A stretch of DNA of 64,000 nucleotides from Thermoplasmata archaeon (GTDB lineage Archaea; Thermoplasmatota; Thermoplasmata; Lutacidiplasmatales; UBA184), in contig JAKIWG010000005.1 in NCBI GenBank assembly GCA_022750155.1, positions 34,465 through 98,464 on the forward strand. The letters are read 5' to 3'. Made by a program: the position numbers and the translations under genes. Position 1 is the stretch's first letter, and each line of letters begins with the position of its first letter. Below, one piece after another: positions 4,971-34,085 of the stretch. Under the pieces are notes generated by a model. The model was given only the letters and a program-made list of their open reading frames with translations, was not told the origin of the DNA and did not search any database.

Positions 4971-6368
4971 GTGCCCGCGAACTCCCGTCGCATCCTCGTC
5001 CTCGGCCTCGACTCCGTCCCGCCCGAACTGTTGTTCGAACGGTTCCTGCCGAAGATGCCGAACCTCCGGGCGCTCCTGGCGAGGTCGGCCCGCGGGACCC
5101 TGCGAAGTTGCGACCCTCCGATCACGGTCCCCGCCTGGGCCGTCATGTTCTCGGGAATGGACCCGGGTTCGCTCGGGATCTACGGGTTCCGTCACCGGCG
5201 GCCGAAGACGTACTGGGACACGTACTCCCCGAACCCCCAGATGGTCCCCTATCCGCTCGTGTGGGACCTGCTCTCGCGCGCGGGGAAGCGCGTGGCCATC
5301 ATCGGCATGCCCCCCGGATACCCCCCGCCCCGGGTGAACGGCGTCTACATCTCCGATTTCCTCACCCCCGACGGCGCGAAGGACTTCGTCCACCCGGCCT
5401 CGCTCGCCGAGGAGATCACCCAGGTCAGCGGCGGGTACGAGTTCGACGTGACGTTCCGCGCGGAGGACCGAGACCGGATCGGGGGCGAGCTCGTCGAGAT
5501 GACGCGCCGCCGCTGGAAGGTCGCGCGCCATCTGTGGAAGAAGGAGAAGTGGGACTTCTTCGCCCTCCACGAGATCGGGCCGGACCGGCTCCACCACACG
5601 TTCTGGAAGTTCTTCGACGAGAAGCATCCCCGCTACGAGAAACACCCGACGTTCACCCAGCTGGTGGAGGACTACTACGTCCTGCTCGACGAGGAGATCG
5701 GGTCGTTCCTTCGCGAGGTCCCCGAGGACGTCACGGTCATGGTGCTCTCCGACCACGGGAGCCAGGGAATGGACGGTTGCTTCTGCATCAACGAGTGGCT
5801 GATCCAGGCCGGCTATCTCAAGCTCAAGGGGCCCGCCCCTGCGCGCGGGACGGCGCTCGAGAAGCTGACCGTCGATTGGTCGAAGACCACGGCGTGGGGC
5901 GCGGGCGGCTACTACGCCCGGATCTTCTTCAACATCAAGGGGCGGGAGCCGCAGGGGATCCTACCACCGGAAAAGCTCGGCAAGACGATCGACCGGATGA
6001 CCGAGGAGCTCAACAAGGTGATGCGGCCGGACGGCAAGCCGCTGGCCCCGCAGGTGCTCTCCCCGTCGAAAATATACAAGGAGGTCCGCGGCGACGCGCC
6101 CGACCTCATGATCTACTTTGGCGACCTGAGGTGGCGTTCGGCCGGGACCCTCGGCTACTCGGGACTGTTCCTCGAGGAGAACGACACCGGTCCGGACGAT
6201 TCGGTGCACTCTTTCAACGGGGTGTTCGCCGTGGCCGACCCCTCCAAGCCCACCGAGCGGACGCTCCCGACGCAGAAGATCACCGACATCGCGCCGACGG
6301 TGCTGAAGATGATGGGTATGGAGATCCCTCCCCGGATGCAGGGTCGCGCCATCGACCTGCTCCTGTAG
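4971..6368 (+). CDS. Type I phosphodiesterase / nucleotide pyrophosphatase-like protein, paralog 2
   Basis: 465 aa with a GTG start. Motifs are 'ILVLGLDSVPPELLF', 'DPPITVPAWAVMFSG' (Thr in the nucleophile position), 'VLSDHGS' and 'TDIAPTVLKMMG'. It is divergent from paralog 1. Confidence 0.8.
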   Translation: MPANSRRILVLGLDSVPPELLFERFLPKMPNLRALLARSARGTLRSCDPPITVPAWAVMFSGMDPGSLGIYGFRHRRPKTYWDTYSPNPQMVPYPLVWDLLSRAGKRVAIIGMPPGYPPPRVNGVYISDFLTPDGAKDFVHPASLAEEITQVSGGYEFDVTFRAEDRDRIGGELVEMTRRRWKVARHLWKKEKWDFFALHEIGPDRLHHTFWKFFDEKHPRYEKHPTFTQLVEDYYVLLDEEIGSFLREVPEDVTVMVLSDHGSQGMDGCFCINEWLIQAGYLKLKGPAPARGTALEKLTVDWSKTTAWGAGGYYARIFFNIKGREPQGILPPEKLGKTIDRMTEELNKVMRPDGKPLAPQVLSPSKIYKEVRGDAPDLMIYFGDLRWRSAGTLGYSGLFLEENDTGPDDSVHSFNGVFAVADPSKPTERTLPTQKITDIAPTVLKMMGMEIPPRMQGRAIDLLL

Positions 6369-8992: not shown

Positions 8993-10528
8993 ATGACCGG
9001 TCGTACCACTCCGAACGTCGTGATCGTCGTGCTCGACTGCGTCCGGGCCTCGGACTTTCCCGACGGGCGGGCACCGGTCGAAGATACGCCCTTCCTCCGA
9101 ACCCTTCAGCGCGAAATGGTGACCTACTCTCGGGCGGTGGCCCCCTCGGCGTGGACGATCCCCTCGCACGCGAGCCTCTTCTCGGGGCTCTACCCGTGGG
9201 AGCACGGAATGCACCTGAAGGGGAACCTCCACTTCGACGCCTCGTTGCCCACGCTCGGGACGATGCTCGAGCGCGAGGGATATGCGAGCTACTCGCTGTC
9301 GGCGAACGGCTTCATCAGTCCCGAATTCGGTCTCACGAACGGATTCCAGCAGGCGGCGTGGGGGGCGTGGTGGGAACGGTTCGCCCGCGTGTTCTCCTCG
9401 TGGGACCATCCCCCGTGCACCTGGTCGGAGGCGGCTCCGAGCGCCACGACCGATTCTCGGCCCAATGACCCGAGCGGCCTCCCCCCGGCCTTCCAGCTGG
9501 TGAGCCGCGTGGTCCACCCGTTCGTGCAGGATCGCGACCCGTTCTGGATGCCGCTCGCCATCAACACCCTGAATCGCACGGTCAGCGGCGTGATCCGTCC
9601 GTCCGAACCGTACAGCCTCCATCTCTCGCCGTGGATCGAGTCGACGTTCTCCGGATGGCTCGCGCGGCAGCCGGGCAGTTCCCCGGTCTTCGGGTTCCTG
9701 AATTTCCTCGACGCCCACGAGCCGTACTTCACCGACCCCCGGCGGGTGACCGGCCCCCTCGAGTGGTGGCGGTACGCCGCATTAAGGATGGACAAGACCC
9801 GGGCTCTCGCCGGCACGTGGCGGCCCAGCGCACGCGAGTACCGGATGATCCATCGATTGTACCGCGACATGATCGCGCAGCTGGACCGGCGGGTCGCCCG
9901 GGTGGTACGCTCCCTCAAGGAGAGCGGTAGGTGGGACGACACCCTGTTCATCTTGACCAGCGATCACGGGCAGGCGTTCGGGGAGCACGACTTCCTATTC
10001 CATGGCTACCGGGTCTGGGAACCGGTCCTTCGCGTGCCGCTCTGGGTCCACTACCCCGCGGGAGCCGATGCGGGGATGCGCGTGAACGAGTGGGCGAGCC
10101 TGGTCGACGTGGCCCCGACCGTCATGGAGGCGATTGGACAGTCCGTCAACGGTTTTCCCTCCTCCTACCCGCTTACGGCGCTCCACCGCGCACCGCGGCC
10201 GGCACCGGTGGTGGGGATCGCCGATGGGGTCCACGTGCGTCAGGTGTTGGAGTCGCTCTGTGGTCCGGAGCGCGTGCGATTCTGGGACGGACCGATGGTG
10301 GCGACCTACCACGGCGACCGCAAGGTCATTCGGGATGTCTGGGCCGACCGTGACTCCCAGTTCGACCTCGCCGAGGACCCGGACGAATTGCACGACCTCG
10401 GGGCCCAGGCGGGAGGCGAGGAACTGCGCGCGGTGGCCCTCGAGGCGGGGCGCCGCCTGGTCGCCCAGCCGGCTCCCACTCAGAGCCCGGATGTCGAGAA
10501 TCGGCTCCGATCCTGGGGTTACTGCTAG
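8993..10528 (+). CDS. Sulfatase-fold enzyme, paralog S2, cytoplasmic; Thr in the nucleophile position
   Basis: 511 aa. Motifs are 'NVVIVVLDCVRASDF', 'APSAWTIPSHASLFSGLYPWEHG' and 'FILTSDHGQAFGEH'. There is no signal peptide. It ends 'ENRLRSWGYC'. Confidence 0.85.
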   Translation: MTGRTTPNVVIVVLDCVRASDFPDGRAPVEDTPFLRTLQREMVTYSRAVAPSAWTIPSHASLFSGLYPWEHGMHLKGNLHFDASLPTLGTMLEREGYASYSLSANGFISPEFGLTNGFQQAAWGAWWERFARVFSSWDHPPCTWSEAAPSATTDSRPNDPSGLPPAFQLVSRVVHPFVQDRDPFWMPLAINTLNRTVSGVIRPSEPYSLHLSPWIESTFSGWLARQPGSSPVFGFLNFLDAHEPYFTDPRRVTGPLEWWRYAALRMDKTRALAGTWRPSAREYRMIHRLYRDMIAQLDRRVARVVRSLKESGRWDDTLFILTSDHGQAFGEHDFLFHGYRVWEPVLRVPLWVHYPAGADAGMRVNEWASLVDVAPTVMEAIGQSVNGFPSSYPLTALHRAPRPAPVVGIADGVHVRQVLESLCGPERVRFWDGPMVATYHGDRKVIRDVWADRDSQFDLAEDPDELHDLGAQAGGEELRAVALEAGRRLVAQPAPTQSPDVENRLRSWGYC

Positions 10529-10569
10529 CGTCACCCGAGAAAGTTTCTCCAGAAACCGCCGTCGATCCG

Positions 10570-11790
10570 CTACGGCGCGGCCGGCCGGAGAAGGGCGATG
10601 AACCGGTCCACCCCCTCGCGGGCCGCGGCCACCTTGTCGAGCACGCGATCCGGCATCGCTCCGGGCCGCCGGAGAAATTCCACCCGTTCGCGCAGCGCCG
10701 CCCGAAGCGCCGGAGCGTCTTCGGCCGGGACGAAGGTGACCTTCTCCCCCAGGTCGCGCGCGAACTCGCGAAGCTGCGGGACGTCGTAGGCGACGAGGTC
10801 GAGGTCGGCCAATGCGCCGACGTTCATCACGCCGGAGATCCCGCCCGTCGCTCGGTAGGGGAGCAGGAGGATGTGGTGTCGCCGGGCGAGGGGGAAGACC
10901 TCCTCCTCGTCGACGCGCCCGAGGAAGTGGAACTGCGCCTTCGGGAGGGAGGACTTCGCCTGTTCCAGCTGCGCGCCGAACTCGGGAAAGCCCGGGTTGG
11001 CCTCTCCGGCGATCGTGACGTCGATCGGGGCGCCATCGTTCACGAGTTCCTCGAGCACCCGCAGAGAACCGGTGAGGTCCTTCTGGGGACCCCAGTACCC
11101 GAACAGCAGGATCCGTACGGGAGGAGGGGGCGCGGGGCGCGGAGCGGATGCGGCGTCCGGTCGCGTGGCCGCGAAGATCGCCTCCAGATACGGAAGGACG
11201 AGGACCTCACACGCCCCGCCGATCTCCCGTGCCACCACGACCCGCATGCTTTCGAGCGGGACAACGACCCGGGTGGAGGCGGTCATGATCCGTTCCAGCG
11301 TGCGCACCCCGAGGCGCGCGACGCCCCCGACCTGGAAGCCCAAGGTCGCCGTGTCCTGAGTTTCGAAGAAATTGTGCATGTAGACGAGGACCGGTTTACG
11401 GGCCGTGACCCGAAGGACCGTGGGAACGAGCATGCCGATCGCGTTGGCGATCGCGCGGCGCCCGAACGCGCTCACGTAGATGCTGAACACGAACACGTCG
11501 ACCCCGGCCCTGGCCGACCACATCCGCCCGAGGCTTCGGAGAAGGGAGGACGGTCGGTCGGCTTCCCAGGTGCCCTCGACCTTCAGCCGCGCAGGGTCGC
11601 CCCCCGGGGGCATGACCGCATCGCTCGGTCCGAAGACCCGGACGAGGGCGACTCGGGGAGAGCGCGCGAGCTCCCAGACGAGCGAGGTGGAGAAGCTGCC
11701 GGCGCGTTCCGAGTGGGGGTAGAAGACCCCGAAGAATCCGATGCGGAGCGGGTCGGCCGGCGTTTCCCGGCGGGGCGGTTCGCCGGCCAT
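10570..11790 (-). CDS. GT-B fold glycosyltransferase (GT4-like)
   Basis: 406 aa with an ATG start. The N-terminal 'IGFFGVFYP' and the C-terminal half 'ILLFGYWGPQKD...FLGRVDEEEVFPLARRHHILLLPYR...GVMNVGALADLDLVAYD' have a two-Rossmann glycosyltransferase layout. It starts 6 nt after the stop of S3. Confidence 0.6.
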   Translation of the reverse strand: MAGEPPRRETPADPLRIGFFGVFYPHSERAGSFSTSLVWELARSPRVALVRVFGPSDAVMPPGGDPARLKVEGTWEADRPSSLLRSLGRMWSARAGVDVFVFSIYVSAFGRRAIANAIGMLVPTVLRVTARKPVLVYMHNFFETQDTATLGFQVGGVARLGVRTLERIMTASTRVVVPLESMRVVVAREIGGACEVLVLPYLEAIFAATRPDAASAPRPAPPPPVRILLFGYWGPQKDLTGSLRVLEELVNDGAPIDVTIAGEANPGFPEFGAQLEQAKSSLPKAQFHFLGRVDEEEVFPLARRHHILLLPYRATGGISGVMNVGALADLDLVAYDVPQLREFARDLGEKVTFVPAEDAPALRAALRERVEFLRRPGAMPDRVLDKVAAAREGVDRFIALLRPAAP

Positions 11791-11796
11791 GGGGCT

Positions 11797-13347
11797 CTAG
11801 ATGTACCCCCAGGACCGCAGTCGTTCCTCGACGTCCGCGGGGGTCTGCGGGGTCCGGGACTCGAGCAGGCGGCGGCCGACGCGCTGGAGCTCGTCCGACA
11901 GGGCGGCGGCTCCGGCGGATTCGGCGGCCCAAAGATCGTGATCCTCGCCGGGGTCGACGCGTAGGTCGAAAAGTTTCTGCGTCGAGCGCGTGGCGTCGAA
12001 GACGAGTTTGCGGTCCCCCTCATACCCCGCGACGAGGACGCGGTCGAGGTCATCGCGCCGATCGGTGGCGAGCCGCTCCCGCTCGTGGTCGGGGATGATC
12101 GTGGTCCAGACGAGTCCGTCGGCCATCGCGTAGACCGCGGTGGGACGCGGCTCGTCGACGAGGCGTTCGAGAGAAACCCCGGAGGTCGCCATCCCGTCCG
12201 GGGTGCCGACGCGGGACAGGAGCGTGGGGACGACGTCGATCAGGCTCGCCCACCCCACGGCCGTGCGCCCTTCGCCCTCGTCGTGCGGCAGGCGGAGCCA
12301 GAGGGGGATCCGGAGGAGCGGGTCGTGGACCTGGAGCATGTGGAACAGCGAGCCATGCTCCCCGAACGCCTGGCCGTGGTCGCTCGTCAGCACGAGGACC
12401 GTGTTCTCCCACCGTCCCGCCTGTTGCAGCGCCTGGACCAGCGACGCGAGCCGCCGGTCGATGGCCCGGAACATCTCTCGGCAGAGGCCGTGGAGGCGCG
12501 CGAACTGCTGGGCGGTGGGGTTCCAGCGACCGGAGAGCCAGCCGACCCCGTCCTGGCGGCCGCCGGACCAGCGTATCCACGACGTGAGGCCGGGAGCGAG
12601 CTCGGGGCCCGGGTAGTACGGCTCGTGGGCCTCGAGCAGATTGACGAATGCGAAGAACGGCTGCTCGCGTGGGATCTCCGAGAGCCATCGGGCGAGCGTG
12701 GGCTCGATCCAGGGAGAGACGGAGAGGTCGGTGGGGGTCCCCGGGAGCTTCAGGCGCTGGACGAACCGTCCTCCGGCATCGAGCAGGAATGGATATCGGT
12801 GCACGGCGTGGGAGCTGCGCTTCATGATCCCCCAGAGCGCCCCGCCGCGGACCTTGGCCAGCCGACGCGAGTCCCCTTCCCCCTCGGCACCGAGAAGGTG
12901 GGGCGGTCGGGTCGGGCGGTCCCCGCGATAGTACGGTTCCCACCAGCCGGCCCAGGCGGCCCGGTCGATCCCGGAGACGAGGCCGAGGTCGGGGGAGATC
13001 AGGTGATTCGCCGAGAGCGAGAGGGTGGTGTAGCCGAGCCGCTTCAACTGCTCGGTGATGCGGGGAACGTCGGGGCTGAGCTTCAGGTTCGATTTCGCGT
13101 GGGCCCCGTGCTCCCACGGATACAACCCGGTGAACAGGCTCGCGTGGGAGGGCACGGTCCATGAGCACGGGGCGACGGCGCGTGGGAACACCGTGGAACG
13201 CGCACGAAGCGACGCCGCGAACGGCATCAGCCCGGCATCGATGGCCGCGGCGAAGTCGTCGGCGCGCACGCAGTCCATCACGACGATGACCAGGTCCGGC
13301 AAGGTCGGGTTCGTCGCGGGAGTCGTCGGCGTGCCCGCCCCGTTCAT
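11797..13347 (-). CDS. Sulfatase-fold enzyme, paralog S3, cytoplasmic; Thr in the nucleophile position
   Basis: ATG 13347 ('MNGAGTPTT...') inside ORF 11797..13656. Motifs are 'DLVIVVMDCVRADDF', 'APCSWTVPSHASLFTGLYPWEHG' and 'LVLTSDHGQAFGEH'. It ends 'EERLRSWGYI'. The upstream ORF extension is P/S/R-rich and overlaps the end of 13367..15898. Confidence 0.85.
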   Translation of the reverse strand: MNGAGTPTTPATNPTLPDLVIVVMDCVRADDFAAAIDAGLMPFAASLRARSTVFPRAVAPCSWTVPSHASLFTGLYPWEHGAHAKSNLKLSPDVPRITEQLKRLGYTTLSLSANHLISPDLGLVSGIDRAAWAGWWEPYYRGDRPTRPPHLLGAEGEGDSRRLAKVRGGALWGIMKRSSHAVHRYPFLLDAGGRFVQRLKLPGTPTDLSVSPWIEPTLARWLSEIPREQPFFAFVNLLEAHEPYYPGPELAPGLTSWIRWSGGRQDGVGWLSGRWNPTAQQFARLHGLCREMFRAIDRRLASLVQALQQAGRWENTVLVLTSDHGQAFGEHGSLFHMLQVHDPLLRIPLWLRLPHDEGEGRTAVGWASLIDVVPTLLSRVGTPDGMATSGVSLERLVDEPRPTAVYAMADGLVWTTIIPDHERERLATDRRDDLDRVLVAGYEGDRKLVFDATRSTQKLFDLRVDPGEDHDLWAAESAGAAALSDELQRVGRRLLESRTPQTPADVEERLRSWGYI

Positions 13348-13366
13348 CCGCCGCCCCCTCTTCGTC

Positions 13367-15898
13367 TCATGTCGGGTAGGTTGGGAGCAGCAGGACGGTC
13401 CATTCGCCCGAGGTATAGACGGCCCGGGCCCCGTACTCCCCCTCGAGGTAGGCCGGGGCGTTCGCCGCGAGGCTGGGCAACAGAGCCGCGGGGACATTGA
13501 GGCTCGAGTAGAGCACGAACCGGGCGGTCCAGTTGGCCCACACCGCGGTCGTCGAGACGAGGTTCGGGAGCTGCCGTATGAGGTTGCTCGCCTGGGGGGT
13601 GGTGAGGTTGAGGGTGAAGGCGACGGAGTTGGCGAGGGAGGAGGAGCGCGAGGCACTGGCGTCGATCGCGATGTGGGGGGGATGGGTCCCGTTGTACGCG
13701 TCGAAGATCCCGCCTAGGGCCGCGCTGGGGTAGAGCGACCCGCGGGTCGTGAGGGCGCCGATGAGCGTCTTGCGGATCCATGTGAAGTTCCCCGGTCCGT
13801 CCCCCCCGTGGAACCGGGCCGTCAGGTTCGGGGGTGCGACCAGCGTCGCGTGGAGATGGAGGATGCGGTATCCCGGCGACGCCGACGCCGAGACGGTATA
13901 CGACGCCTCGGGCGAGTTGGGCTGAATGGTCATGTTGATCGCGACCTGGTAGCCGACCCGGGTGAAGACGAGAGTGAGCCAGGACTGGTTGGCGGAGGTG
14001 ACGCTGATCGTCGGCGAACCGGTCAGATTGACCTCACGGATCGCCCCGAAATGCCCGTAGGTGACCACGATCTGGTTCGCCGGCATCACCACGACCGGAG
14101 TGAACGTCCCGTAGATCGCCGCCTGGTAGACGGGGGAGGAGCCGATGAACGTGGCGTTCGTCCCGGAGGTCGACGCGGCGACCAGGTTGTTGGTCACGGC
14201 ATAGCGCCCCGTGAGGGCGAGGTAGGCGAGCTCCCCGGCCAGGATGTGGGGCGGGTCGAAGGAGAAGCGCCCGGGGATGTACGGGGCGTACGCATCACGC
14301 ACCAGCAGCGCCCTCGTCCACTTTACCGCCCCGGAGACGGTGAGCACCGAGCCGGGGATCCCCGAGTGCCGGATGTAGTTGAGCGCGTCGAGGAACGCCT
14401 GGTCGTGTCCGACCCGGGTGGAGTTGAGCTCGTACTTCTCCGACAGGGGGAGCGAGACCATGTCGGCGAGCACGATCAGGAGGACCACGCCGACGGAGAA
14501 GACGAGCATCGCCCTCGGGACCCGGTATCGCACGGCATGGAGACCGAGCCGAAGCTGGTGGCGGAGGACGTTCCCTCTCGGTCGCGGGGGGCGCGGGAGC
14601 GGCAGGCCGTCGGGTCGCGGCATCAGGTACCGCTGGACCAACAGCGCGACCCCGAGGACGAGCGGGGTGATCAGGAAGTACGCCATGCGAACGTAGTCGG
14701 AAACGATGAACAGCTCCCACCCGCCGATCATCAGCCCGATGGGGGCGCCGATCATCGCCAGCACCATCGCCTCGCTCACGGTGAGGAGCTTCGGCCGGTA
14801 GAAGCGGGCATACAGGACGATGGCGACCAGCGCCCCCTCCGCCACCCCGAGGGCGAGGAGCGCGGTGACCGGTGGAAGGATCGCGTGGTGCAGCCAGATC
14901 CGGCTCAGGAGGAAGATGAAATGGCCCGGGCCGTTCTTCACGTGGGCGAACTGGCCGGTCTGCAGGTAGTGGGGATGGGGGACCCCGACGAGGCGCGTCC
15001 CGAGGTAGAACCCCCCGACCCCGAGCGCGAACAATCCCATGCCGGCCCACGCCCCGCTCGAAGAGTAGACCTCCTTGGGGATCCGGCGATAGATCAGCAT
15101 CACCGCCCAGAACAGGACCAGGGTCACGGCGAGCATGATCGCGACGAGGCTGTGGGTGAGCACCGCGGCCGTCGTGGCGACCCACGCGATGAAGATGTGC
15201 GCCGAGCGGTGGGAACGGCTGAAGCGGACCGTGTAGGCGAGTGCGATGTTGAAGAACACGAACCCGAGGAGATTCGGGTACGCGCCAAAGAAGAACAACA
15301 GCAGGAACGAGGGGTTGAGCAGCACGAACCCCTCGGCGAGGAGGGGCAAGGACCAGGTCCGGGTCAGCGAGCGGCCGAGGACGTAGGTGGACGCCCCCAG
15401 GAACGTGGTGACGACTCCGACGTACAGTCGGGCCCCCATCACCGGGCCGCCGCCCAGGATGACCAGCGACCCCAAGAGCGGGAAGAGGCCCGGCGGGTAT
15501 TGTCCGGGGATGATCCAGCTGGGCGCCGGAAGGTTGACCCAAGGGTACGAGGAGGTCACCCATTCGCCCGGGTCCCCGCCCGGAGGGACCGGATGCGCGA
15601 GCATCACCCACTCGAGCAGAATCGCTACGGCGAGGCCGATCCCGAAGGAGAGGATGAGCGCCGGGGTGTCCGCCTTGGCCTTTCCCAACAGACCGCTCGG
15701 CTCCGGCAGCGCGGGGAGGTCGCGGAAGAAGTAGGCGTGGAGCGCGCGAATTCGTCGGACGACGTAGCCGGCGTTCGTCGGCCTTGGTCCGCCGGGGACC
15801 ACCGCGGGCGAAGGTCTCGGGGGAGCGGCACGGACCGGAGTCGTCGAGCTCGCGGTGGGTGCGCTGTCGCGGGGTCGAGTCGGAGCCGGCGCCGACAT
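13367..15898 (-). CDS. Large polytopic membrane protein, GT-C-like putative glycosyltransferase (paralog A) with an extracytoplasmic sequon-rich C-terminal domain
   Basis: ATG 15898 ('MSAPAPT...') inside ORF 13367..16261; the upstream part overlaps S4. It has more than 10 hydrophobic segments. The first-loop motif is 'PPGGDPGEWVTSSYPW', and 'FGAYPNLLGF', 'LTHSL' and 'VSDYVRMAYF' are present. The C-terminal ~350 aa are soluble, with many N-x-S/T, ending '...GEWTVLLLPTYPT'. Confidence 0.65.
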   Translation of the reverse strand: MSAPAPTRPRDSAPTASSTTPVRAAPPRPSPAVVPGGPRPTNAGYVVRRIRALHAYFFRDLPALPEPSGLLGKAKADTPALILSFGIGLAVAILLEWVMLAHPVPPGGDPGEWVTSSYPWVNLPAPSWIIPGQYPPGLFPLLGSLVILGGGPVMGARLYVGVVTTFLGASTYVLGRSLTRTWSLPLLAEGFVLLNPSFLLLFFFGAYPNLLGFVFFNIALAYTVRFSRSHRSAHIFIAWVATTAAVLTHSLVAIMLAVTLVLFWAVMLIYRRIPKEVYSSSGAWAGMGLFALGVGGFYLGTRLVGVPHPHYLQTGQFAHVKNGPGHFIFLLSRIWLHHAILPPVTALLALGVAEGALVAIVLYARFYRPKLLTVSEAMVLAMIGAPIGLMIGGWELFIVSDYVRMAYFLITPLVLGVALLVQRYLMPRPDGLPLPRPPRPRGNVLRHQLRLGLHAVRYRVPRAMLVFSVGVVLLIVLADMVSLPLSEKYELNSTRVGHDQAFLDALNYIRHSGIPGSVLTVSGAVKWTRALLVRDAYAPYIPGRFSFDPPHILAGELAYLALTGRYAVTNNLVAASTSGTNATFIGSSPVYQAAIYGTFTPVVVMPANQIVVTYGHFGAIREVNLTGSPTISVTSANQSWLTLVFTRVGYQVAINMTIQPNSPEASYTVSASASPGYRILHLHATLVAPPNLTARFHGGDGPGNFTWIRKTLIGALTTRGSLYPSAALGGIFDAYNGTHPPHIAIDASASRSSSLANSVAFTLNLTTPQASNLIRQLPNLVSTTAVWANWTARFVLYSSLNVPAALLPSLAANAPAYLEGEYGARAVYTSGEWTVLLLPTYPT

Positions 15899-15983
15899 CG
15901 TCGCTAGATGCCTCCCCACGACGAGGCGTCCTCCGATCGAGCCGACCCCGAACCAAGCGGCGGGGGCCTGGGCGAGGCGGAGA

Positions 15984-17504
15984 TCATAGGTAGCCCCACG
16001 ACCGCAGTCGATCCTCCACGTCGGCGCTGGGGGCGATGGTCGTCCCCGACGCCATTCGAGCCGCGGCGGTCCGAGTGGCCTTGAGCAACCCGGCCGATCC
16101 CTCCGACTCCGAAGACCAAAGGTCGACGGATTCGGACGGGTCTCGGCCCACGTCGTACACCCGCGCCGTGTCCGTCGCGACGTCGTACACCAGCTTGCGC
16201 TCCCCCTCGTAGGCCGCGACGAGCAGCCGGTCGATCGATTCGCGTCGAAGGAGCGGAGCACGGCGCCGATCCTCGGCGTGCACCAGTCCGTCCGAGAAGG
16301 CGAGCACCGGACCCGTCCGGGGCCGGTCGATGAGATCCTCGAGCGGCACCCCCACGCCCCCGAGGGCGTCCGAGGGGAGGCCCGCGGCGCATAGCGCCGT
16401 GGGTCCGAGGTCGATCAGGCTGGCCCAGCCGCTCCCGCGAACACGTCCAGTACCCCCCCCGGGGGGACGGTAGATGAGCGGGATCCTCAACTCCGCCTCG
16501 TCCACACCCTGGATGTGGAAGAGGGCCCCGTGCTCGCCAAACGCCTGGCCGTGGTCGCTCGTGAGGATCATCAGCGTGTCGTCCCACCTACCGGCGCTCC
16601 GGAACGCGGAGATGATCTGTCCGAGGCGCCGGTCGAGGCCCTGGACGGTGCACCGATAAAGGTGGTGAAGTCGGGCATACTCGGCGGGGCTCGGATTCCA
16701 GTCACCGGAGACCCACCCCATCCGGTCCTGACGGCTCCGGACGTATGCCCAAAAGTCCCGGATCGAGGGGAGACCCTCGGCGTCCCGGAGGTACGGTTCG
16801 TGCGCGTCCAGCAGATTGATGAAACAGAAGACCGGCTCCGAGGGCGGCGTCTCCGAGAGCCATCGGTCGAGTGTGGGCTCGAGCCAGGAGGCCATCGCGG
16901 GACGAAGCGGCTCGTCGCCCGCCCGCATGTGGAGAGCCACCCGGGTCCCGACGTCCCAGACCCCCGGGTATCGCGCCAGGAAGACGCCGGTCCACTGGGC
17001 GGCGCCGTGGAGACCGCGTACCCGGCTCTCGAGGGCGGCCGCCCGGTTCGGACGGCCCTCGAGGCTCTGCGGGGGGCTCCGGGCCCGGCTCACCCGGTCG
17101 AACAGGGTGGTCCCCCACGCGGCCTGCTGGAACCCGTCGACCAAGCCCAGGTTGGGAGAGATCAGGCCGTTGGCCGATACCGAAAGCGTCCGGTAGCCCG
17201 CCGACCGAAGCAGGCCGCCGACCTTCGGCAGGGCGGGGTCGAGATGGAGCTGCCCACGCGCGTGGACCTGGTGCTCCCACGGGTACCGGCCCGTAAACAG
17301 CGTGGCATGCGCCGGAACGGTCCAGTGGGCCACGCTCGCCGCGAGCGGGAATTCGACCGCGTCGCGAAGGAGTTCTTGTACGAAGGGCATCGGTGAGACA
17401 GGGTCGGCGCCCCCGGGGAAGTCGCTGGCCCGAACGCAGTCGAGCACGACGATCAGCACGTTGGGGGGATGGCCCGGTACCATCGGTTGGCCGGAATCTT
17501 CCAT
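15984..17504 (-). CDS. Sulfatase-fold enzyme, paralog S4, cytoplasmic; Thr in the nucleophile position
   Basis: 506 aa with an ATG start. Motifs are 'NVLIVVLDCVRASDF', 'SVAHWTVPAHATLFTGRYPWEH' and 'MILTSDHGQAFGEH'. It ends 'EDRLRSWGYL'. Confidence 0.85.
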   Translation of the reverse strand: MEDSGQPMVPGHPPNVLIVVLDCVRASDFPGGADPVSPMPFVQELLRDAVEFPLAASVAHWTVPAHATLFTGRYPWEHQVHARGQLHLDPALPKVGGLLRSAGYRTLSVSANGLISPNLGLVDGFQQAAWGTTLFDRVSRARSPPQSLEGRPNRAAALESRVRGLHGAAQWTGVFLARYPGVWDVGTRVALHMRAGDEPLRPAMASWLEPTLDRWLSETPPSEPVFCFINLLDAHEPYLRDAEGLPSIRDFWAYVRSRQDRMGWVSGDWNPSPAEYARLHHLYRCTVQGLDRRLGQIISAFRSAGRWDDTLMILTSDHGQAFGEHGALFHIQGVDEAELRIPLIYRPPGGGTGRVRGSGWASLIDLGPTALCAAGLPSDALGGVGVPLEDLIDRPRTGPVLAFSDGLVHAEDRRRAPLLRRESIDRLLVAAYEGERKLVYDVATDTARVYDVGRDPSESVDLWSSESEGSAGLLKATRTAAARMASGTTIAPSADVEDRLRSWGYL

Positions 17505-17610
17505 CCGGGTTCGCTCTTAAAGCTCTAGACCGCGATTCAACCGAAATGGGTGTGTGCTACTGCGCACGGATACGGGTAGGCGCATACGGGACACCTCGAG
17601 CCGGCCCCAC

Positions 17611-20100
17611 CTACCCCTGCAGGATCAGCCACTCGGAGTTGACGAAGAAGGTTCGGAACCCGAATCCCTGGGTGAACAGGTGGGCGGTAGGAAGGTAATC
17701 CGGTTTGTTCGGGAGCAACACGAAGTGGATGTCGTAGGAGGCGAGGAACGAGGACGTGTTCAGCACCCGCGGGAGTTGGACCGCAGGGTTCGAGGTCGGC
17801 CCGGTGCGGAGGGCGAGGGAGACGTGGAACGGCGCCCCCGGGACGGGGTCGGCGAAGCGGAGGGTGGCGGTCGGAACGGCGGCGGCGAGGTTGAGGGCGC
17901 TCGTGGAAGGAGCGGGCGTCATCGTGGCCACCGTGGAGACCGGGACCGGATCCGGTAGCGGGCCCACACCGGCCGAGAGGTTCCAGAACAGCGAACTCCC
18001 ATCGACCGAACCGCTCGTCACCGGGCTCGGGTTCACCAGCTGGGTGCTGGCCGCGAAACCGGCCAACGAGAAGGAGAGAGCGGTCACCGGGCTCCCGGAG
18101 GCCGGATTTACGGAGAAGTTCAGCCATCCCGCGCCGCCGGCACCGAGCGCGGTGGTTTCGTTCACCGTGGTTCCCGCCGTATTGAACGTAAGCTGGGCGC
18201 CCCCGGCGGCATCGGGGAGTTGCAGGGCACCTCCGCCCGGTAGCGAGGCGGTCCGGGTGACAGTCCCGCTCCCGTTCTGGACGGAAACGTTCAGCGTGGA
18301 GGGCAGGACGCGGAACACCGGGAAGTTGATGCCCTCGTACAGCACCGAATACATCGGCGTCGACGGAACCGCGCCGGGGGCCCCGAGCCCCGAGTAGGAG
18401 AACGCGGCCTCGTTGTTGGTGATCGCCCCTTGCCCGTTGAGGGCGAAATAGGTCTCCTCCACGTTGGTGATCTGCCAGGGAAAGAACAGGAGCCACGTCG
18501 GGCCGATCTCGTAGGCACCGCGATCCGTGAGCGCTTCGGTCCAGCGGACCACGCTCGCCGCGGCGAGGACCGACCCCGTTTGGGGGTTGCCCTTGAGCGC
18601 GTGCATAGCCTGCAGGAAGAACTGGTCGTGGGTGAGTCCAGTGTCGATGCGCTCGAGCCGCGTGGCGGTGGGTAGGGTGACGGTACTGATGAGCAGGACG
18701 ACGACCACGAACAGTCCGACGTCGACCCCCCATCCGGAACGGATCGTCCCCCGGCGGGTCGTTCGCCCCGCCTCCGGAGGGGCCGATGGGGGGGTGGTCG
18801 CGATCGGCGAGCCCGCAGGGACGATGTGGGCATTGCGTTCCAGGATCCAACGGTCTCCTACGACGGCGACCATCAGGGCGAGCGGGACCGGGAGGTAGTA
18901 CAGGAACCGGTTGTATACGGTGTCGACGTGGGCGTACCAGCCGAGCACCGGAACCGCGAGGCAGGTGACGAGCCAGCCGCCCGCCAGGAGCGCTTCGGTG
19001 GAGACAAGGCGCGGCCACTTCCACCTCGCCCCGAGGAGGGGGACCAGGACCAAGACGGAGGAGATCAACAGAACGGCGATCGCGGCATCGACGGAAAGGT
19101 AGAGCGGGGCTCCTGCCGGCCAGAACGCCGGTTCGGACCCGAGCGGGAGGAAGATCTGGCCGATATTGTTCAGGGGGTACGCGGCGGGGTTCGAGTACAG
19201 GTACGAAGCGTGAGAGATCTTCTGGACGGAGGTCACCGCGGTGTAGACGGCGACCGTCCCGGCGAGCAGGGCGATCCCGGCGAGATTCCCCCGATTGAAG
19301 ACCAGCCGACGTGCTCCGCGCTCGAAGAGCGAGACGAGGAGCCATCCGAACACAAGCTCGGCGGCGAGGAGAGCGAACGTCAGGGTGTGGTCGAGATACG
19401 TGAGGGCAACGAACCCCCACATCCCGACCGCGTAGAGCCGTCTCTGCGTCCGAAGGAAGCCGATCAGGCAGACGAACGCCTCGTTGACCAAGAGGAACGC
19501 CATGAAGTTCGGGTACCCCCCCCAGTAGAGCATCGAGAGGGTGGTCCCGTTCAGGAGGGCGGCCGCGACGAATCCAACCTGGGCTGGGCCGGTAGCGAGG
19601 AGTCGTCGGGAGAGGTGGATCGTGGTCAGGCCGAACCCCACGAGCATCAGGCTCGCGAAGATGAACCCCGGGAACAGGGCGCTCTGAGTCAGGCGGGCGA
19701 GGATCCCGAGGAACGGGAAGATCAGAGGGGGATAGACGTACGGGGAGCCCACCGCCATGACCGGAGGGTGCGGGAGTCCTACGAACCCGTAGGATCGTTG
19801 GGTCCAGTCCGCGGAATCGAACCCCGGCGGAACGGGAGCGGCTTGATAGGTCTGGAGCAGCACGGTCACCGCGAACAGGACGAGGAGCAGAGAGGCGACC
19901 AGGTACGGGCGGTTTCCGGCGCGTTGCAGGCGCTTCCAGAGCTGCCAGAAGCCGAGCGGCGCGGGGCGCGGCGCCGCTTCGGGGGGAGAGACCGACACCG
20001 GTGGCTCGCGACGCGAGGCACCTCTAATCATGGTTTCGGTGAAGCGGCCACGGCCGCGGGAGGCCGGGAGCCTCCCGGTTTTGCGACGGATGGTCACCAT
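17611..20100 (-). CDS. Large polytopic membrane protein, GT-C-like (paralog B)
   Basis: Within ORF 17611..20190, whose annotated start is TTG. Plausible starts are ATG 20100 ('MVTIRRK') or ATG 20031 ('MIRGASRR'). Motifs are 'PPGFDSADWTQRSYGF', 'YWGGYPNFMAF', 'LDHTL' and 'HVDTVYNRFLYY'. The sequon-rich C-terminal domain ends 'NSEWLILQG'. Confidence 0.65.
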   Translation of the reverse strand: MVTIRRKTGRLPASRGRGRFTETMIRGASRREPPVSVSPPEAAPRPAPLGFWQLWKRLQRAGNRPYLVASLLLVLFAVTVLLQTYQAAPVPPGFDSADWTQRSYGFVGLPHPPVMAVGSPYVYPPLIFPFLGILARLTQSALFPGFIFASLMLVGFGLTTIHLSRRLLATGPAQVGFVAAALLNGTTLSMLYWGGYPNFMAFLLVNEAFVCLIGFLRTQRRLYAVGMWGFVALTYLDHTLTFALLAAELVFGWLLVSLFERGARRLVFNRGNLAGIALLAGTVAVYTAVTSVQKISHASYLYSNPAAYPLNNIGQIFLPLGSEPAFWPAGAPLYLSVDAAIAVLLISSVLVLVPLLGARWKWPRLVSTEALLAGGWLVTCLAVPVLGWYAHVDTVYNRFLYYLPVPLALMVAVVGDRWILERNAHIVPAGSPIATTPPSAPPEAGRTTRRGTIRSGWGVDVGLFVVVVLLISTVTLPTATRLERIDTGLTHDQFFLQAMHALKGNPQTGSVLAAASVVRWTEALTDRGAYEIGPTWLLFFPWQITNVEETYFALNGQGAITNNEAAFSYSGLGAPGAVPSTPMYSVLYEGINFPVFRVLPSTLNVSVQNGSGTVTRTASLPGGGALQLPDAAGGAQLTFNTAGTTVNETTALGAGGAGWLNFSVNPASGSPVTALSFSLAGFAASTQLVNPSPVTSGSVDGSSLFWNLSAGVGPLPDPVPVSTVATMTPAPSTSALNLAAAVPTATLRFADPVPGAPFHVSLALRTGPTSNPAVQLPRVLNTSSFLASYDIHFVLLPNKPDYLPTAHLFTQGFGFRTFFVNSEWLILQG

Positions 20101-20247
20101 CGGCCCGGGCGGGGCGTCAGGGGGGGCCCGGCTCCGTGTCGGTTCGTTCGTGGGTCGCCTGGGCGACTCGTCCCTGCGGTCGCGTTGCAATTCGAGGGTG
20201 GGGCTTTAACCCGAGAATCTCTGACTCGCTCCTCGAAGGAGCTCTCG

Positions 20248-22683
20248 GTGGCGACCAAGGACCCTTCCCCTTCCGGCGCGGAGCCCGGAGCGGGGTTAAC
20301 GACCCTCCCGGAGTGGAGCTGGCCGTACTGGCTCGCGATGCTGGCCATCTTGGCCGCCGCGGTGGGGGTCCTCGAATGGCAGTTCCACATGTGGCCGCTG
20401 CCCCCGGGGAACGATACGGGCCACTGGCTGTGGACCTCCTACGGCTACGCCGGCCTCCCCACCCCGCCCGCGGCCGCAGTCGGGAGTGCCTACTCCGTCC
20501 CCCCCGTCCCGTTCCTGCTCCTGGCGATCTGTGTGCGAATCGTCGGGGACCCGTTCTCCGCGATCGCGCTGTACGCGGGGATTCTCCTGACGGCGTTCGG
20601 ACTGACGGTGATGCACGTCGCACGGACGTACCTTCGGCACCCTCCCTTCGGGGTGCTGATGGTGGGGGTCGTCCTGTTCAACGGGACGATCTTCAGCATG
20701 CTATTCTGGGGGGGGTTCCCGAACTTCACCGGCCTCATTTTCCTCGAGGAATCGATGGCCGGCGCGTTGCTGTTCGCGCGGTCCGGGAAACTTCGGGACT
20801 CGCTCATCCTGTACGGAGCGCTGTCCCTCACGTTCCTCTCGCACGACCTGTCCTTTGTCCTGGCCGTCGGAGGCGTGGCGATCGGTGCGTTCTTCCTGAT
20901 GGCGACCGGTCTCCTGGAGGGCCGCTTCCTGGTCCGCTGGCAGAACCTGGTCGGCCTCACGATCCTCGGCATCGTCGTGGTCGGATACTCGCTGATGACC
21001 CGATGGCTGGCAATTCCGCGCCCCGGGCTGATCAACTCCAATCCGGCCACGTACGTGATCGCAAACATCGGACAAATCTTCAATCCGATCACCCTCAGCG
21101 GCTCGACGACCCCGACGTACGAACTCCCGGTTCCGTTCACCCTCGGGGTCCTCCTCCTCATCCCGGTGGTCCTGTTCTTCATTCTCCTGTGGCTCCGCCG
21201 CGGCTCGCTGCGCCCGAGCTTCAGATGGAGGGCGGCCGCCCCGGGGTCCGAAACCCTTCCGGGACCCCGCGCCTCGGTCGTGGACGCGTCGCTGGTGATG
21301 GCGGTCGGCTGGCTTTCCGGGACGCTCGCGGTTCCCGCGCTCGGATATCTCGCCCACGTCGACACCGACTATCTTCGGTTCGGCTTCTTCCTCCCGGTCG
21401 CCTTCCTCCCCCTCATCGTCGTCGCGCTGGAACGCGCGGCCGAACGGGTGACGGGCTTCTCGGCGGTCGGCACGGCGTGGCCGAGGGCGGACCCCATCGG
21501 TGCGTCCCCGGCGGCCCCGTCGGCGTCTCGCCCTCGGGGCGGGATCCCGCGGCCTTGGGTCGCATTTCACCTCGCGATCGCGGTCGCCGTCTTGGTCGTC
21601 GCCGGTGGGTACGGGATACCGGTGGCGATCTCCAGCGAGCGGTTCAACACGCAGAACGCCCACGACGCGCAGTTCCTGGACGCGGTGTCCTTCCTCAAGC
21701 AGAGCAACGCCCCGGGCGCGGTCCTCACCTACGACGGGGCGACGCGCTGGGTCCAGTCGCTCACCGCCCGGGCGGCGTTCGATTCCGCCCCGACGTGGGA
21801 GCTCTTCTACCCATACCAGATCGTCGACGGTCAGGAGGCGTACTTCGCGTTGAACAGCGCGACCACGGTGACCGACAACCACGTCGCGCTCATGTACACC
21901 GGGACGAGCGTTGCCTCCCTATCGGCGCAGCCCGGCTATTCCGTGCTGGTCGAGGGGATCCCCTTCCCCGTGTTCCGCATCACCCCGGCGGCGACGTTCG
22001 TGAACGTGACGCAGAACGGCGTGGAACAGCGCTACTCCCCGACGGAGTGGGGCTCTCCCTCCTTCGTCGTGACCGGCGGCGCGACCCCGTCGGTCACCAC
22101 GTCATTTTCAGGGCCGGTGTTCTACTACAATGAAACCGACCAGATCGTGGGCGGGGGAGCGGCGTACCTCAATGTGTCCGTCACCCCCACTCCGGGATCC
22201 GGCGCCACGATCGATTCGTTCAGCTACGGATTGGCCCCACCGTCGGGCTCCGACCCGATCCTCCACGCCGCCAAGCCCGCGGGGATCAGCACCTCCGGGT
22301 CGAGCTTCCTCTGGCAGATGGCCGGTCGGCTCGGTCAGATCCCTGGTGCCTACGTCCTATCGACCTCCGGCACATTCGCGAGCCCTCCGGCCAACATGTC
22401 GCTCCCGTCCAAGGGGGCTCCGAACCTGCTGATCTTCTCCTTCGGGGGGAACGGGACGCCGGTGACGGGATCCTCGCTCGAGGTGTCGACCACCGGCACG
22501 GGGAACCCCGCCGTACAGCTCCCGCCGGTGCTCGCCACCTCCCAGTTCCTGACGAGCCACGGGATCCATTTCGTGCTCCTTCCGAACAACCCGGTCTACC
22601 TGCCGACCATCCAGGTGTTCCAGACGCAGCTCGGGTTTCAGTCGGCGTTCCAGAACTCCGAATGGACGGTGCTCGAAGGATGA
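20248..22683 (+). CDS. Large polytopic membrane protein, GT-C-like (paralog C)
   Basis: In frame with ORF 18826..22683, but the first ~470 codons are antisense to paralog B. GTG 20248 ('VATKDPSPS...') is the first plausible start after a 'GCTTTAAC' box at ~20203-20210. Motifs are 'PPGNDTGHWLWTSYGY', 'FWGGFPNFTGL', 'LSHDL' and 'HVDTDYLRFGFF'. The C-terminal domain ends 'NSEWTVLEG'. Confidence 0.65.
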   Translation: MATKDPSPSGAEPGAGLTTLPEWSWPYWLAMLAILAAAVGVLEWQFHMWPLPPGNDTGHWLWTSYGYAGLPTPPAAAVGSAYSVPPVPFLLLAICVRIVGDPFSAIALYAGILLTAFGLTVMHVARTYLRHPPFGVLMVGVVLFNGTIFSMLFWGGFPNFTGLIFLEESMAGALLFARSGKLRDSLILYGALSLTFLSHDLSFVLAVGGVAIGAFFLMATGLLEGRFLVRWQNLVGLTILGIVVVGYSLMTRWLAIPRPGLINSNPATYVIANIGQIFNPITLSGSTTPTYELPVPFTLGVLLLIPVVLFFILLWLRRGSLRPSFRWRAAAPGSETLPGPRASVVDASLVMAVGWLSGTLAVPALGYLAHVDTDYLRFGFFLPVAFLPLIVVALERAAERVTGFSAVGTAWPRADPIGASPAAPSASRPRGGIPRPWVAFHLAIAVAVLVVAGGYGIPVAISSERFNTQNAHDAQFLDAVSFLKQSNAPGAVLTYDGATRWVQSLTARAAFDSAPTWELFYPYQIVDGQEAYFALNSATTVTDNHVALMYTGTSVASLSAQPGYSVLVEGIPFPVFRITPAATFVNVTQNGVEQRYSPTEWGSPSFVVTGGATPSVTTSFSGPVFYYNETDQIVGGGAAYLNVSVTPTPGSGATIDSFSYGLAPPSGSDPILHAAKPAGISTSGSSFLWQMAGRLGQIPGAYVLSTSGTFASPPANMSLPSKGAPNLLIFSFGGNGTPVTGSSLEVSTTGTGNPAVQLPPVLATSQFLTSHGIHFVLLPNNPVYLPTIQVFQTQLGFQSAFQNSEWTVLEG

Positions 22684-32995: not shown

Positions 32996-33002
32996 CAAAT
33001 AG
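32996..33002 (+). promoter_or_regulatory. TATA-like box for 33024..34070
   Basis: 'CAAATAG' is centred about 25 nt upstream of GTG 33024. Confidence 0.35.
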
Positions 33003-34070: not shown

Positions 34071-34085
34071 TTCGCACCGACCCGG

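Follow-up and report, generated by a model that had tools for sequence, protein, structure and literature searches.

Soluble sulfatase-fold proteins paired with predicted GT-C glycosyltransferases in a candidate surface-glycan island of a Thermoplasmata archaeon

Introduction

The closest precedent for a sulfatase-fold protein that modifies archaeal glycans comes from Halobacterium salinarum. There, VNG1056C (Agl30) and VNG1057C (Agl31), two proteins of the alkaline phosphatase superfamily annotated as sulfatases, are encoded in a cluster anchored by aglB (PMC11980604; Zaretsky et al. 2025, mBio). Agl30 is membrane-associated, and Agl31 was found by fractionation to be soluble and cytosolic. 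Upon their deletion, the third and fourth sugars of the tetrasaccharide assembled on dolichol phosphate (DolP) are no longer sulfated, and upon their expression in Haloferax, the pentasaccharide of this organism becomes sulfated; the donor and the catalytic residues were not discussed (PMC11980604). A further precedent is possibly Agl7 (HVO_2046) of Haloferax volcanii, which is needed for the sulfation of DolP-hexose, possibly a prerequisite for translocation (PMC3892788). In this work, we analyzed a stretch of 64,000 nt, hereafter called the window, from contig JAKIWG010000005.1 of a Thermoplasmata archaeon of the order Lutacidiplasmatales. It carries genes for four soluble sulfatase-fold proteins (S1 to S4) and for four large polytopic membrane proteins (A, B, C, and D), among which A, B, and C define what we call the M family, and the pairing of these two kinds of genes recurs across Thermoplasmata. 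Loci fetched from other genomes are designated by L and a number.

The S proteins are comparable to Agl30 and Agl31 in their sulfatase fold and in the presence of a GT-C glycosyltransferase gene (aglB in Halobacterium) in the same glycosylation cluster; like Agl31, they are soluble and, by prediction, cytosolic. Agl30 and Agl31 act on the DolP-linked glycan before its transfer, and we propose by analogy that the S proteins may do the same. In Halobacterium, agl30 and agl31 are not paired one-to-one in an operon with a dedicated GT-C gene, which sets them apart from the S genes. The partners of S are predicted non-STT3 GT-C proteins (M family, DUF2079, and PMT_2), with several paralogous pairs per genome, and the AglB cluster differs in this respect. 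An earlier note, made from the letters of this DNA, had mentioned that sulfatase-like genes occur in haloarchaeal agl clusters, which is borne out by Agl30 and Agl31 (PMC11980604) and by the haloarchaeal relatives of S found in glycan clusters. The same note had called the system a candidate undescribed one. Sulfatase-fold modifiers of archaeal N-glycans were in fact described in 2025, so that this word now applies to the operonic pairing with a non-STT3 GT-C, for which we found no description. Literature searches for DUF2079, or for GT-C together with sulfatase and archaea, found no paper.

Soluble sulfatase-fold proteins

We looked at the family assignment of the S proteins. All four match PF00884 (Sulfatase, E 1e-22 to 1e-28), and every one of them also matches PF01663 (E 1e-14 to 1e-17). 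S2, S3, and S4 are 40-44% identical among themselves, and S1 is about 28% identical to these three. The family is large, with at least 1,487 protein matches at E<=1e-10; among GTDB species representatives, it occupies 414 loci, of which nearly all of the best 80 are labelled Thermoplasmata. No named family fits S, because all of its NCBIfam matches (choline sulfatase, arylsulfatase, PehA, STM4013 family, YejM, EptA/MCR, and LtaS) lie far under the curated cutoffs. LtaS, EptA, and YejM gave marginal matches only in sequence searches. An AlphaFold2 (AF2) model of S3 was obtained with a predicted local distance difference test (pLDDT) score of 82 and a predicted TM-score (pTM) of 0.86. When this model was searched with Foldseek, the nearest structures were choline-O-sulfatase and phosphonate monoester hydrolase (PMH) (TM ~0.62, E 3e-22), followed by sulfatases of family S1, and none of LtaS, EptA/MCR, OpgB, GacH, YejM, and NPP was among the top 50 structural neighbours.

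An alignment of 18 S members shows that D25, T64, H68, H241, D323, H324, and H336 are invariant. When aligned with the PMH 4upk, T64 of S3 falls on the Cys that becomes formylglycine (FGly), and the Arg of the motif is changed into His. The C/S-x-P-x-R motif that yields FGly is replaced by W-T-x-P-S/A/V-H in 18/18 aligned members as well as in three haloarchaeal relatives. The second sulfatase signature, G-Y-x-S/T-x-x-x-G-K-x-x-H, is also absent, S having G-Y-x-T-x-S-x-S-A-N-x-L instead (register read from the alignment). The Asp and Asp-His residues that bind the metal are kept, D25, D323, and H324 being invariant. Judging from the model and the alignments, S keeps the metal site of the sulfatase/PMH fold intact and has a Thr as the predicted nucleophile. 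Because Thr replaces the FGly Cys, the S proteins, as read from these sequences, cannot be formylglycine sulfatases.

BetC choline-O-sulfatase and PMH (6g5z, 7pth, 2vqr, 2w8s, 4uph) are the best structural and PDB sequence matches of S. Both are cytoplasmic oligomeric sulfatase-fold enzymes with a C-terminal extension. They use FGly within C-x-P-x-R, whereas S has T-x-P-S/A-H and is devoid of G-K-x-x-H; moreover, they are catabolic hydrolases and, unlike S, have no link with a GT-C gene. LtaS, EptA/MCR, OpgB, and GacH share with S a sulfatase-like fold and a Thr nucleophile, and they are transferases that decorate envelope glycans or lipids. However, the catalytic domain of these transferases is extracytoplasmic and fused to its own transmembrane (TM) domain, while S is a protein of ~500 aa without any TM segment.

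The C-terminus of S, R-x-W-G-Y-(I/L/V), is strictly conserved in the 18-member alignment. The longer motif E-x-R-L-R-x-(W/L)-G-Y-(I/L/V) is the very C-terminal end of every S member examined (11797-11830 in the case of S3), including three haloarchaeal plasmid homologs. In the tetramers of choline sulfatase and PMH, the C-terminal extension reaches the neighbouring active site, and by analogy with these tetramers, the C-terminal motif of S could be an oligomer contact at the active site of a neighbouring subunit.

Concerning the localization of the S proteins, their hydropathy profiles contain no hydrophobic segment (maximum Kyte-Doolittle value over 19 residues, KD19, <=1.34), and both signal peptide and TM segment are absent. 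The density of N-x-S/T sequons is 0-0.6 per 100 aa in S (zero in S4) versus 2.3-3.6 in the secreted proteins of the window. Because they have neither TM segment nor signal peptide and a sequon density near zero, the S proteins are probably cytoplasmic. Since they combine this predicted location with a complete catalytic core, we predict that they are active enzymes working before flipping. A PglZ-like defence function was also considered for the block and rejected, PADLOC giving no match for S2, S3, S4, A, B, C, or the neighbouring glycosyltransferase gene of the GT4 type.

Membrane proteins A, B, C, and D

A, B, and C are paralogous to each other, with 25-35% identity by BLASTP (25-29% for A versus B or C), and D has no BLAST match to any of the three. 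A to D have no match in Pfam, NCBIfam, or PDB sequence searches. Because these direct searches gave nothing, the GT-C assignment was drawn from structure, profile-profile comparison, and transitive matches. The topology read for B starts with an Arg-rich cytoplasmic N-tail and TM1, followed by a long outer loop, ~10 more TM helices, a cytoplasmic loop, and a last TM; its C-terminal domain is a sequon-rich beta-sandwich of ~340 aa. GT-C enzymes have a polytopic N-terminal domain of 8-13 TM helices whose TM1 precedes a long extracytoplasmic loop, and the hydropathy of A to D and the Arg-rich N-tail agree with this layout; the topology of A, B, and C obeys the positive-inside rule. Their C-terminal domains contain 1.5-2.6 sequons per 100 aa, with 9/10 sequons of A located there, and because they are sequon-rich, these domains are probably outside the cell.

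The AF2 model of B, obtained from an alignment of 12 sequences, has a mean pLDDT of 67, with values of 80-94 over most of the TM core. Foldseek matched its TM domain to STT3 of the human and yeast oligosaccharyltransferase (OST) (6s7o, 8pn9, 7oci), PglB (5ogl, 6gxc), EmbA/B (7bvc), and ALG12 (9s6t), with E values of 2e-4 to 6e-3 and a probability of 1.0. The C-terminal beta domain resembles the N-terminal sandwich of GH65/GH94 phosphorylases by the same approach. In GT-C enzymes, as a rule, the catalytic acidic residue is found in the first outer loop. The loop after TM1 of B carries a P-x-G-x-D-x-x-x-W motif whose Asp, D95, is invariant in the 12 sequences and present in at least 90% of 32 family members; this motif fits GT-C, since the acidic residue sits in the first outer loop.

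Profile comparisons point in the same direction. With hhalign, the M family matched the DUF2079 family at 97% (E 6e-11) and PMT_2 proteins at 94% (group of ~1100 aa) and 87% (group of ~930 aa), and the negative control, Wzx, gave 0.1%. A search of 1.84 billion representatives with an M-family hidden Markov model (HMM) retrieved 305 relatives, the remote ones carrying PMT_2 (31.9, 44.4, and 26.4 bits; cutoff 26.1) and PTPS_related at or above the gathering score. A paralog in L002 has weak PTPS_related and PMT_2 matches of its own. C scores 995 with this HMM, and A falls in the M-family HMM cluster. From the model and these comparisons, we conclude that A, B, and C are predicted to form a small divergent family of GT-C glycosyltransferases. 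They share the Asp in the outer loop after TM1, the fold, and the profile with GT-C proteins of the PMT_2, PTPS_related, and DUF2079 kinds (ArnT-like and PMT-like; functionally AglS of Hfx. volcanii and ALG/STT3). They differ from PMT_2-type GT-C in having no Pfam or NCBIfam match, in the small size of the family, and in a C-terminal domain that is GH65/GH94-like and not the soluble domain of STT3 or PMT. As for D, it has the architecture of A to C and a conserved Asp after TM1, with no Pfam match, and the hhalign probabilities are low (32% to the M family and 49% to PMT_2); that D is a GT-C is only suggested by these features.

Conservation of the pairing

Loci surrounding S homologs were retrieved from GTDB genomes (77 in all), together with the contexts of B and S homologs, and we scanned them for open reading frames (ORFs) of >=450 aa with >=7 hydrophobic segments. 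The large polytopic proteins clustered into the M family, DUF2079 (PF09852, E ~1e-40), PMT_2 proteins of ~1100 aa, PMT_2 proteins of ~930 aa, the D family, Wzx, and singletons. Adjacency was counted for 60 S genes from other Thermoplasmata genomes with at least 3 kb on each side, a partner being a non-Wzx protein of >=640 aa with >=7 TM. A large polytopic partner was found within 600 bp in 27/60 S genes. Twelve of these partners belong to the M family, 6 are DUF2079 proteins, 4 + 2 are PMT_2 proteins, 2 are from the D family, and 1 is of another kind. The two genes are on the same strand in 21/27 pairs, often with a gap below 60 bp or an overlap. Wzx adjoins 4 further S genes of the 60, and a large polytopic protein is present within 3 kb in 35/60. 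In loci of +-10 kb, 15 of the 36 large polytopic proteins lie less than 600 bp from an S gene, versus 2.9 expected (P = 4e-8); this placement test is conservative, as it conditions on membership of the same 20-kb locus. These results show that the S/GT-C adjacency is conserved across Thermoplasmata, far above chance.

In a neighbour-joining tree of 87 S proteins, the clades follow the type of partner. The M family is the partner of the S4-type and S3-type clades; each PMT_2 group, DUF2079, and Wzx have clades of their own, and the S2-type clade and one deep clade are orphans. The most conserved unit consists of an S4-type gene followed directly by an A-type GT-C gene in at least eight genomes. 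This pair is kept in L002/L029, L003, L004, L009, L025, L028, and L065, the S4-A gap being 85 nt in the window and ranging from an overlap to ~130 nt in other loci. An S3-type gene comes after A in the window, L003, L004, and L009, and the position of B is variable. Divergent C-type orthologs are present in L003 and L004, and L004 has an S2 ortholog at the same position. A D-family gene is followed by an adjacent S gene in L011, L034, and L086.

The earlier note had proposed a repeated one-to-one pairing of soluble enzymes with GT-C-like membrane proteins. The pairing itself holds, being conserved and above chance. It is not strictly one-to-one, since the unit is an S4-type gene and then an A-type gene, with an S3-type gene after A. 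The GT-C-like nature that the note had given to all four membrane proteins is supported for A, B, and C by Foldseek of B, hhalign, the HMM relatives, and the Asp, which do not point to transporters, and it is only suggested for D. Neither did the S genes turn out to be scattered paralogs with no enrichment near these membrane proteins.

Gene organization of the window

The window has a GC content of 68% and encodes an archaeal RIO kinase, and MAGs (metagenome-assembled genomes) labelled Thermoplasmata archaeon are the sole source of matches to its proteins. Lutacidiplasmatales have ~69% GC and are known solely from genomes (PMC9287336); the genomes related to the window include that of Candidatus Lutacidiplasma silvani and many MAGs from acid soils. 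The features are listed in Table 1. The ORFs of the block agree with the coordinates, strands, and gaps given in the earlier note and are backed by codon-position GC (GC3 0.84-0.92). The descriptions of this note also stood as regards the sulfatase fold of S1 to S4, their lack of signal peptide and TM segment with the predicted cytoplasmic location, the sequon-rich extracytoplasmic domains of the membrane proteins, and the Wzx-type flippase beside D. Along the run of B, S4, A, S3, and the GT gene, the gaps are 106, 85, 19, and 6 nt, values that depend on the choice of start codons; the database product of B, for instance, has 795 aa, with a start at 19998 instead of 20100. S2 and the GT gene are convergent, with a 41-nt gap. 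The B-S4 gap (17505-17610, minus strand, 106 nt) has 61% GC versus ~70-80%, the lowest of the four gaps of this run; a TTTAAG element is located within it, ~12-17 nt before the annotated ATG of S4. This element may act as an archaeal promoter inside the run; alternatively, S4 may truly start further downstream.

Table 1. Features of the window and ATP sulfurylase genes of related loci (assignments are predictions)
Feature	Coordinates	Strand	Description
PLC/AcpA-type phosphoesterase (PF04185)	39..1583	-	E 2.6e-64; membrane-anchored, sequon-rich
S1	1861..3342	+	493 aa, divergent sulfatase-fold paralog; PF00884 E 1.1e-25; Thr motif, RSWGY C-terminus
NPP-type (PF01663) paralog pair	3395..4816; 4971..6368	-; +	E 1.7e-35; 1.1e-40; divergent transcription
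S2	8993..10528	+	511 aa, soluble sulfatase-fold paralog; PF00884 E 1.2e-28; no membrane partner adjoining
GT gene	10570..11790	-	GT-B (GT4-like) glycosyltransferase, cytoplasmic; 6 nt downstream of S3
S3	11797..13347	-	516 aa, soluble sulfatase-fold enzyme; PF00884 E 3e-23; T64, C-terminal RLRSWGYI
A	13367..15898	-	843 aa, GT-C-like paralog of B and C; S4 upstream, S3 downstream
S4	15984..17504	-	506 aa, soluble sulfatase-fold enzyme; PF00884 E 3.6e-22; upstream partner of A
B	17611..20100	-	795-829 aa, polytopic GT-C-like protein
C	20248..22683	+	811 aa, GT-C-like paralog of B (35% identity); diverges from B
D	28785..31175	+	796 aa, polytopic; architecture as A-C, other sequence family
Wzx-type oligosaccharide flippase	31210..33096	-	PF01943 E 4e-16; convergent on D
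Second PF04185 gene	54216..55334	-	Phospholipase C / acid phosphatase AcpA type
ATP sulfurylase, L086	2587-3753	+	
ATP sulfurylase, L010	2279-3466		
ATP sulfurylase, L011	2526-3692		
ATP sulfurylase, L024	2833-3999		
ATP sulfurylase, L046	2751-3917		

Neighbouring genes

The GT gene downstream of S3 has a weak PF00534 match (E 0.003) and a weak match to the NCBIfam EpsE GT4 model. Because its homologs carry PF13692 and PF00534, its predicted assignment to GT-B/GT4 is reasonable. The order S then GT4 is also found in L086. Homologs of the Wzx flippase adjoin S genes in L034, L039, L048, L052, and L054.

Genes for ATP sulfurylase (PF14306 and PF01747) are present inside the S/GT clusters of five Thermoplasmata genomes (Table 1). 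L086, L010, and L011 have a HAD hydrolase gene first, then ATP sulfurylase, two GT2 genes, a D-family gene, and S, and L086 goes on with GT4, S, and PMT_2. In L024 and L046, ATP sulfurylase and GT2 are followed at some distance by Wzx and then by S. No APS kinase was seen in L086 within +-9 kb. This gene content suggests that the supply of adenosine 5'-phosphosulfate (APS) or 3'-phosphoadenosine 5'-phosphosulfate (PAPS) is tied to S/GT clusters.

Several phosphoesterase genes accompany the S genes of the window. The two PF01663 paralogs are 53% identical, devoid of a signal peptide, and sequon-poor, and are both probably cytoplasmic; their link to the system is uncertain. So is that of the first PF04185 product, which has an N-terminal membrane anchor and 17 sequons and is probably an extracellular phosphoesterase.

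Two genes flanking the S/GT-C block, 6420-8657 (-) and 22662-24098 (+), encode secreted, C-terminally anchored, and highly sequon-rich proteins with no Pfam match. Homologs of the first product are present in 11 S loci and those of the second in 9. The 6420-8657 product contains a W-N-I-G-N-E-V sequence that may resemble a motif of clan GH-A glycosidases. The 22662-24098 product was also considered as a Wzx flippase, and this was ruled out, as it has no Pfam match, 17 sequons, and the features of a secreted protein with a C-terminal anchor. Two ORFs of 348 aa and 464 aa beside Wzx (33024-35480) were likewise rejected as members of the module, since they have no PDB or Pfam match and no homologs in the fetched loci. 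Very large secreted surface proteins are encoded at 24321-28559 (+), 43683-46706 (-), 47997-50753 (-), 57301-61620 (+), and 61386-63998 (+). They contain PKD, fn3, PQQ beta-propeller, and InlB-type B-repeat domains and many N-glycosylation sequons. An A4-family acid peptidase encoded at 37390-38172 is in keeping with an acidophilic lifestyle. The whole window looks like a cell-surface island.

Haloarchaeal relatives of S

When S3 was searched against plasmids by tblastn, almost only haloarchaeal genes annotated 'sulfatase' were obtained, with 25-30% identity. The haloarchaeal relatives share W-T-x-P-x-H, DHGE, and the C-terminal ERLRxLGY-L with S. On a plasmid of Halomarina sp. BCD28 (L083, 5045-12534), the order is GT2, sulfatase, oligosaccharide flippase, a 751-aa DUF2206 membrane protein, and GT, a layout that resembles the S clusters of Thermoplasmata. 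This DUF2206 protein was tried as a GT-C relative and was not retained, hhalign giving no significant match to the M, DUF2079, PMT_2, or D families. On pNG700 of Haloarcula marismortui, three sulfatase-like genes are located amid GT2 and GT4 genes. In Natrinema and Halostagnicola, the order is MprF-like TM protein, sulfatase, hypothetical protein, GT4, and GT.

Discussion

The genes adjoining S encode GT-C families, Wzx, and, in haloarchaea, flippase or MprF-like proteins. To judge from the families to which these partners are assigned, their common denominator is the handling of polyprenyl-phosphate-linked sugars. The folds and motifs, a probable location in the cytoplasm, and the conserved clade-specific pairing are what the analysis shows; from these we infer a substrate, an added group, a donor, and an order of steps. 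We see an even chance that the window is a surface-glycan island in which a sulfo or phospho group is transferred in the cytoplasm to lipid-linked sugars, which are then flipped and transferred outside by a cognate GT-C. S1 to S4 would be cytoplasmic, metal-dependent Thr enzymes, acting as group transferases rather than as hydrolases, and would first put an anionic group on a DolP-linked sugar or oligosaccharide at the inner face of the membrane. This group would most likely be sulfate, because of the Agl30/Agl31 precedent and the ATP sulfurylase link, with a phosphoryl or phospho-alcohol group as the main alternative. The ATP sulfurylase genes of related clusters suggest APS or PAPS as the donor. 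The modified lipid-linked unit would secondly be flipped by Wzx or another flippase, and the neighbouring GT-C would thirdly move it to an N-glycan, a lipoglycan, or a protein outside. A, B, and C, and probably D, would be GT-C enzymes that use DolP-linked sugars on the outer face and build or decorate N-glycans or a lipoglycan. As a fourth step, the GT4 enzyme encoded downstream of S3 would add a sugar in the cytoplasm.

The Arn (ArnC/ArnD, then ArnE/F, then ArnT) and Gtr systems follow a logic in which a cytoplasmic modifier and a flippase are combined with a dedicated GT-C acting outside, and we propose by analogy that the same logic may apply here. The fold of the modifier differs, being that of a sulfatase in the window versus the deformylase ArnD and the GT2 enzymes ArnC and GtrB.

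Several points weigh against this scheme of cytoplasmic modification, flipping, and transfer. The likeness of S to Agl31 is drawn from fold, predicted location, and gene setting. Phosphoryl transfer of the NPP, EptA, LtaS, and phosphopentomutase type is marked by a Thr nucleophile combined with a D...DH metal site. The predicted nucleophile of S is thus typical of the phosphoryl-transfer members of the superfamily and not of sulfuryl transfer, and G-K-x-x-H is lost too. The sulfate-only form of the scheme is further at odds with the richness of the S loci in phosphoesterases, PF01663 being present in 13 and PF04185 in 12, with two of each in the window. ATP sulfurylase, APS kinase, and a GT2 Dol-P-sugar synthase were all looked for and are absent from the window. 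About half of the S genes have no adjoining GT-C, and S1 and S2 are themselves orphans. The Foldseek TM-scores of B are low (0.25-0.39), and the mean pLDDT of its model is just 67. Finally, the lineage is known from genomes alone and has no cultured member.

Some of these points lead to another function for S, which we regard as somewhat unlikely. The S proteins would be phosphotransferases or phosphodiesterases that put a phospho-alcohol or a sugar-1-phosphate onto dolichol-linked glycans, or that cleave the donors. These would be a cytidine diphosphate (CDP)-alcohol, a nucleoside diphosphate (NDP)-sugar, or a phospholipid, and the GT-C would then transfer the phospho-modified unit outside. 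The Thr nucleophile and the D...DH site, the loss of both FGly-sulfatase signatures, the match of every S to PF01663, and the PF01663 and PF04185 genes of the S loci are all in line with this function, and an archaeal N-glycan, that of Thermococcus, does carry phospho-inositol (PMC11407970). However, the closest folds are those of sulfatases and PMH, not of LtaS, EptA, or NPP, the sole characterized archaeal glycan modifiers with a sulfatase fold are sulfotransferases (PMC11980604), and ATP sulfurylase is found in five related clusters.

A related and more specific idea, which we judge unlikely, is that S and GT-C form a two-component route. A covalent sulfo- or phospho-Thr enzyme, possibly charged from APS without a PAPS-type sulfotransferase, would load the group or a sugar-1-phosphate on the dolichol carrier, and only the co-evolved GT-C would use this donor. 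If true, this would be a new mechanistic class of sulfo-/phosphotransferase together with a new GT-C family for anionic donors.

It is quite unlikely, in our opinion, that the window is a phosphate-scavenging and membrane-remodelling island, in which S and the NPP-like and PLC-like hydrolases free phosphate in P-poor acid soil while GT4 and GT-C make phosphorus-free glycolipids or a lipoglycan, the adjacency reflecting co-regulation and not a shared substrate. The window does contain eight genes of the alkaline phosphatase superfamily or PLC type (S1 to S4, two PF01663, and two PF04185), acid soils are the source of related genomes (PMC9287336), and the membrane-anchored, probably extracellular PF04185 enzyme would fit. 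Contrarily, the S proteins are probably cytoplasmic, and the tight same-strand S-GT-C pairs, whose partners are clade-specific and belong to at least five GT-C families, speak for one common pathway. Moreover, the haloarchaeal homologs are part of glycan clusters of the classical kind that contain GT genes and, in one case, a flippase, and the window revealed neither a phosphate transporter nor a Pho regulator.

Lastly, it is very improbable that the alternation is a by-product of a two-gene tandem duplication in a dense glycosylation island, with S being ordinary hydrolase paralogs uncoupled from GT-C: although B-S4-A-S3 resembles a duplicated M-S unit with the paralog pairs A/B and S3/S4, and roughly one in two S genes of other genomes lacks an adjoining large membrane protein, the adjacency recurs across lineages with GT-C families (DUF2079, two PMT_2, and D) linked, where detectable, at the profile level only, it exceeds expectation (15 versus 2.9 within 600 bp) even when conditioned on the same 20-kb locus, and no member has the FGly motif on which hydrolysis by sulfatases depends, the other active-site residues being invariant.

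Cytoplasmic modification of lipid-linked sugars by S, followed by flipping and GT-C transfer, is the scheme that we retain. Sulfatase-fold glycan sulfotransferases were shown genetically only in 2025 and in a single haloarchaeon. To this work, the present analysis adds a large Thr-type S subfamily common to Thermoplasmata and Halobacteria, which is paired in operons with dedicated non-STT3 GT-C enzymes and Wzx in a conserved and clade-specific way. It also recognizes the A/B/C family, together with the DUF2079 proteins encoded beside S, as such partners, and it links ATP sulfurylase to S clusters. Three traits of the S family bear on the mechanism of sulfatase-fold sulfotransferases, namely the invariant Thr, the probable cytoplasmic location, and the gene-by-gene wiring to GT-C and Wzx. 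A likely role can be proposed for an uncharacterized GT-C family and for the S-adjacent DUF2079 proteins, and ATP sulfurylase becomes a candidate gene for donor supply. The S/GT-C pairing offers a testable model for how anionic groups may be added to lipid-linked archaeal sugars before export. Such Thermoplasmata are abundant in acid soils and known only from genomes, and their surface glycans are the main unexplored interface with their environment and their viruses.

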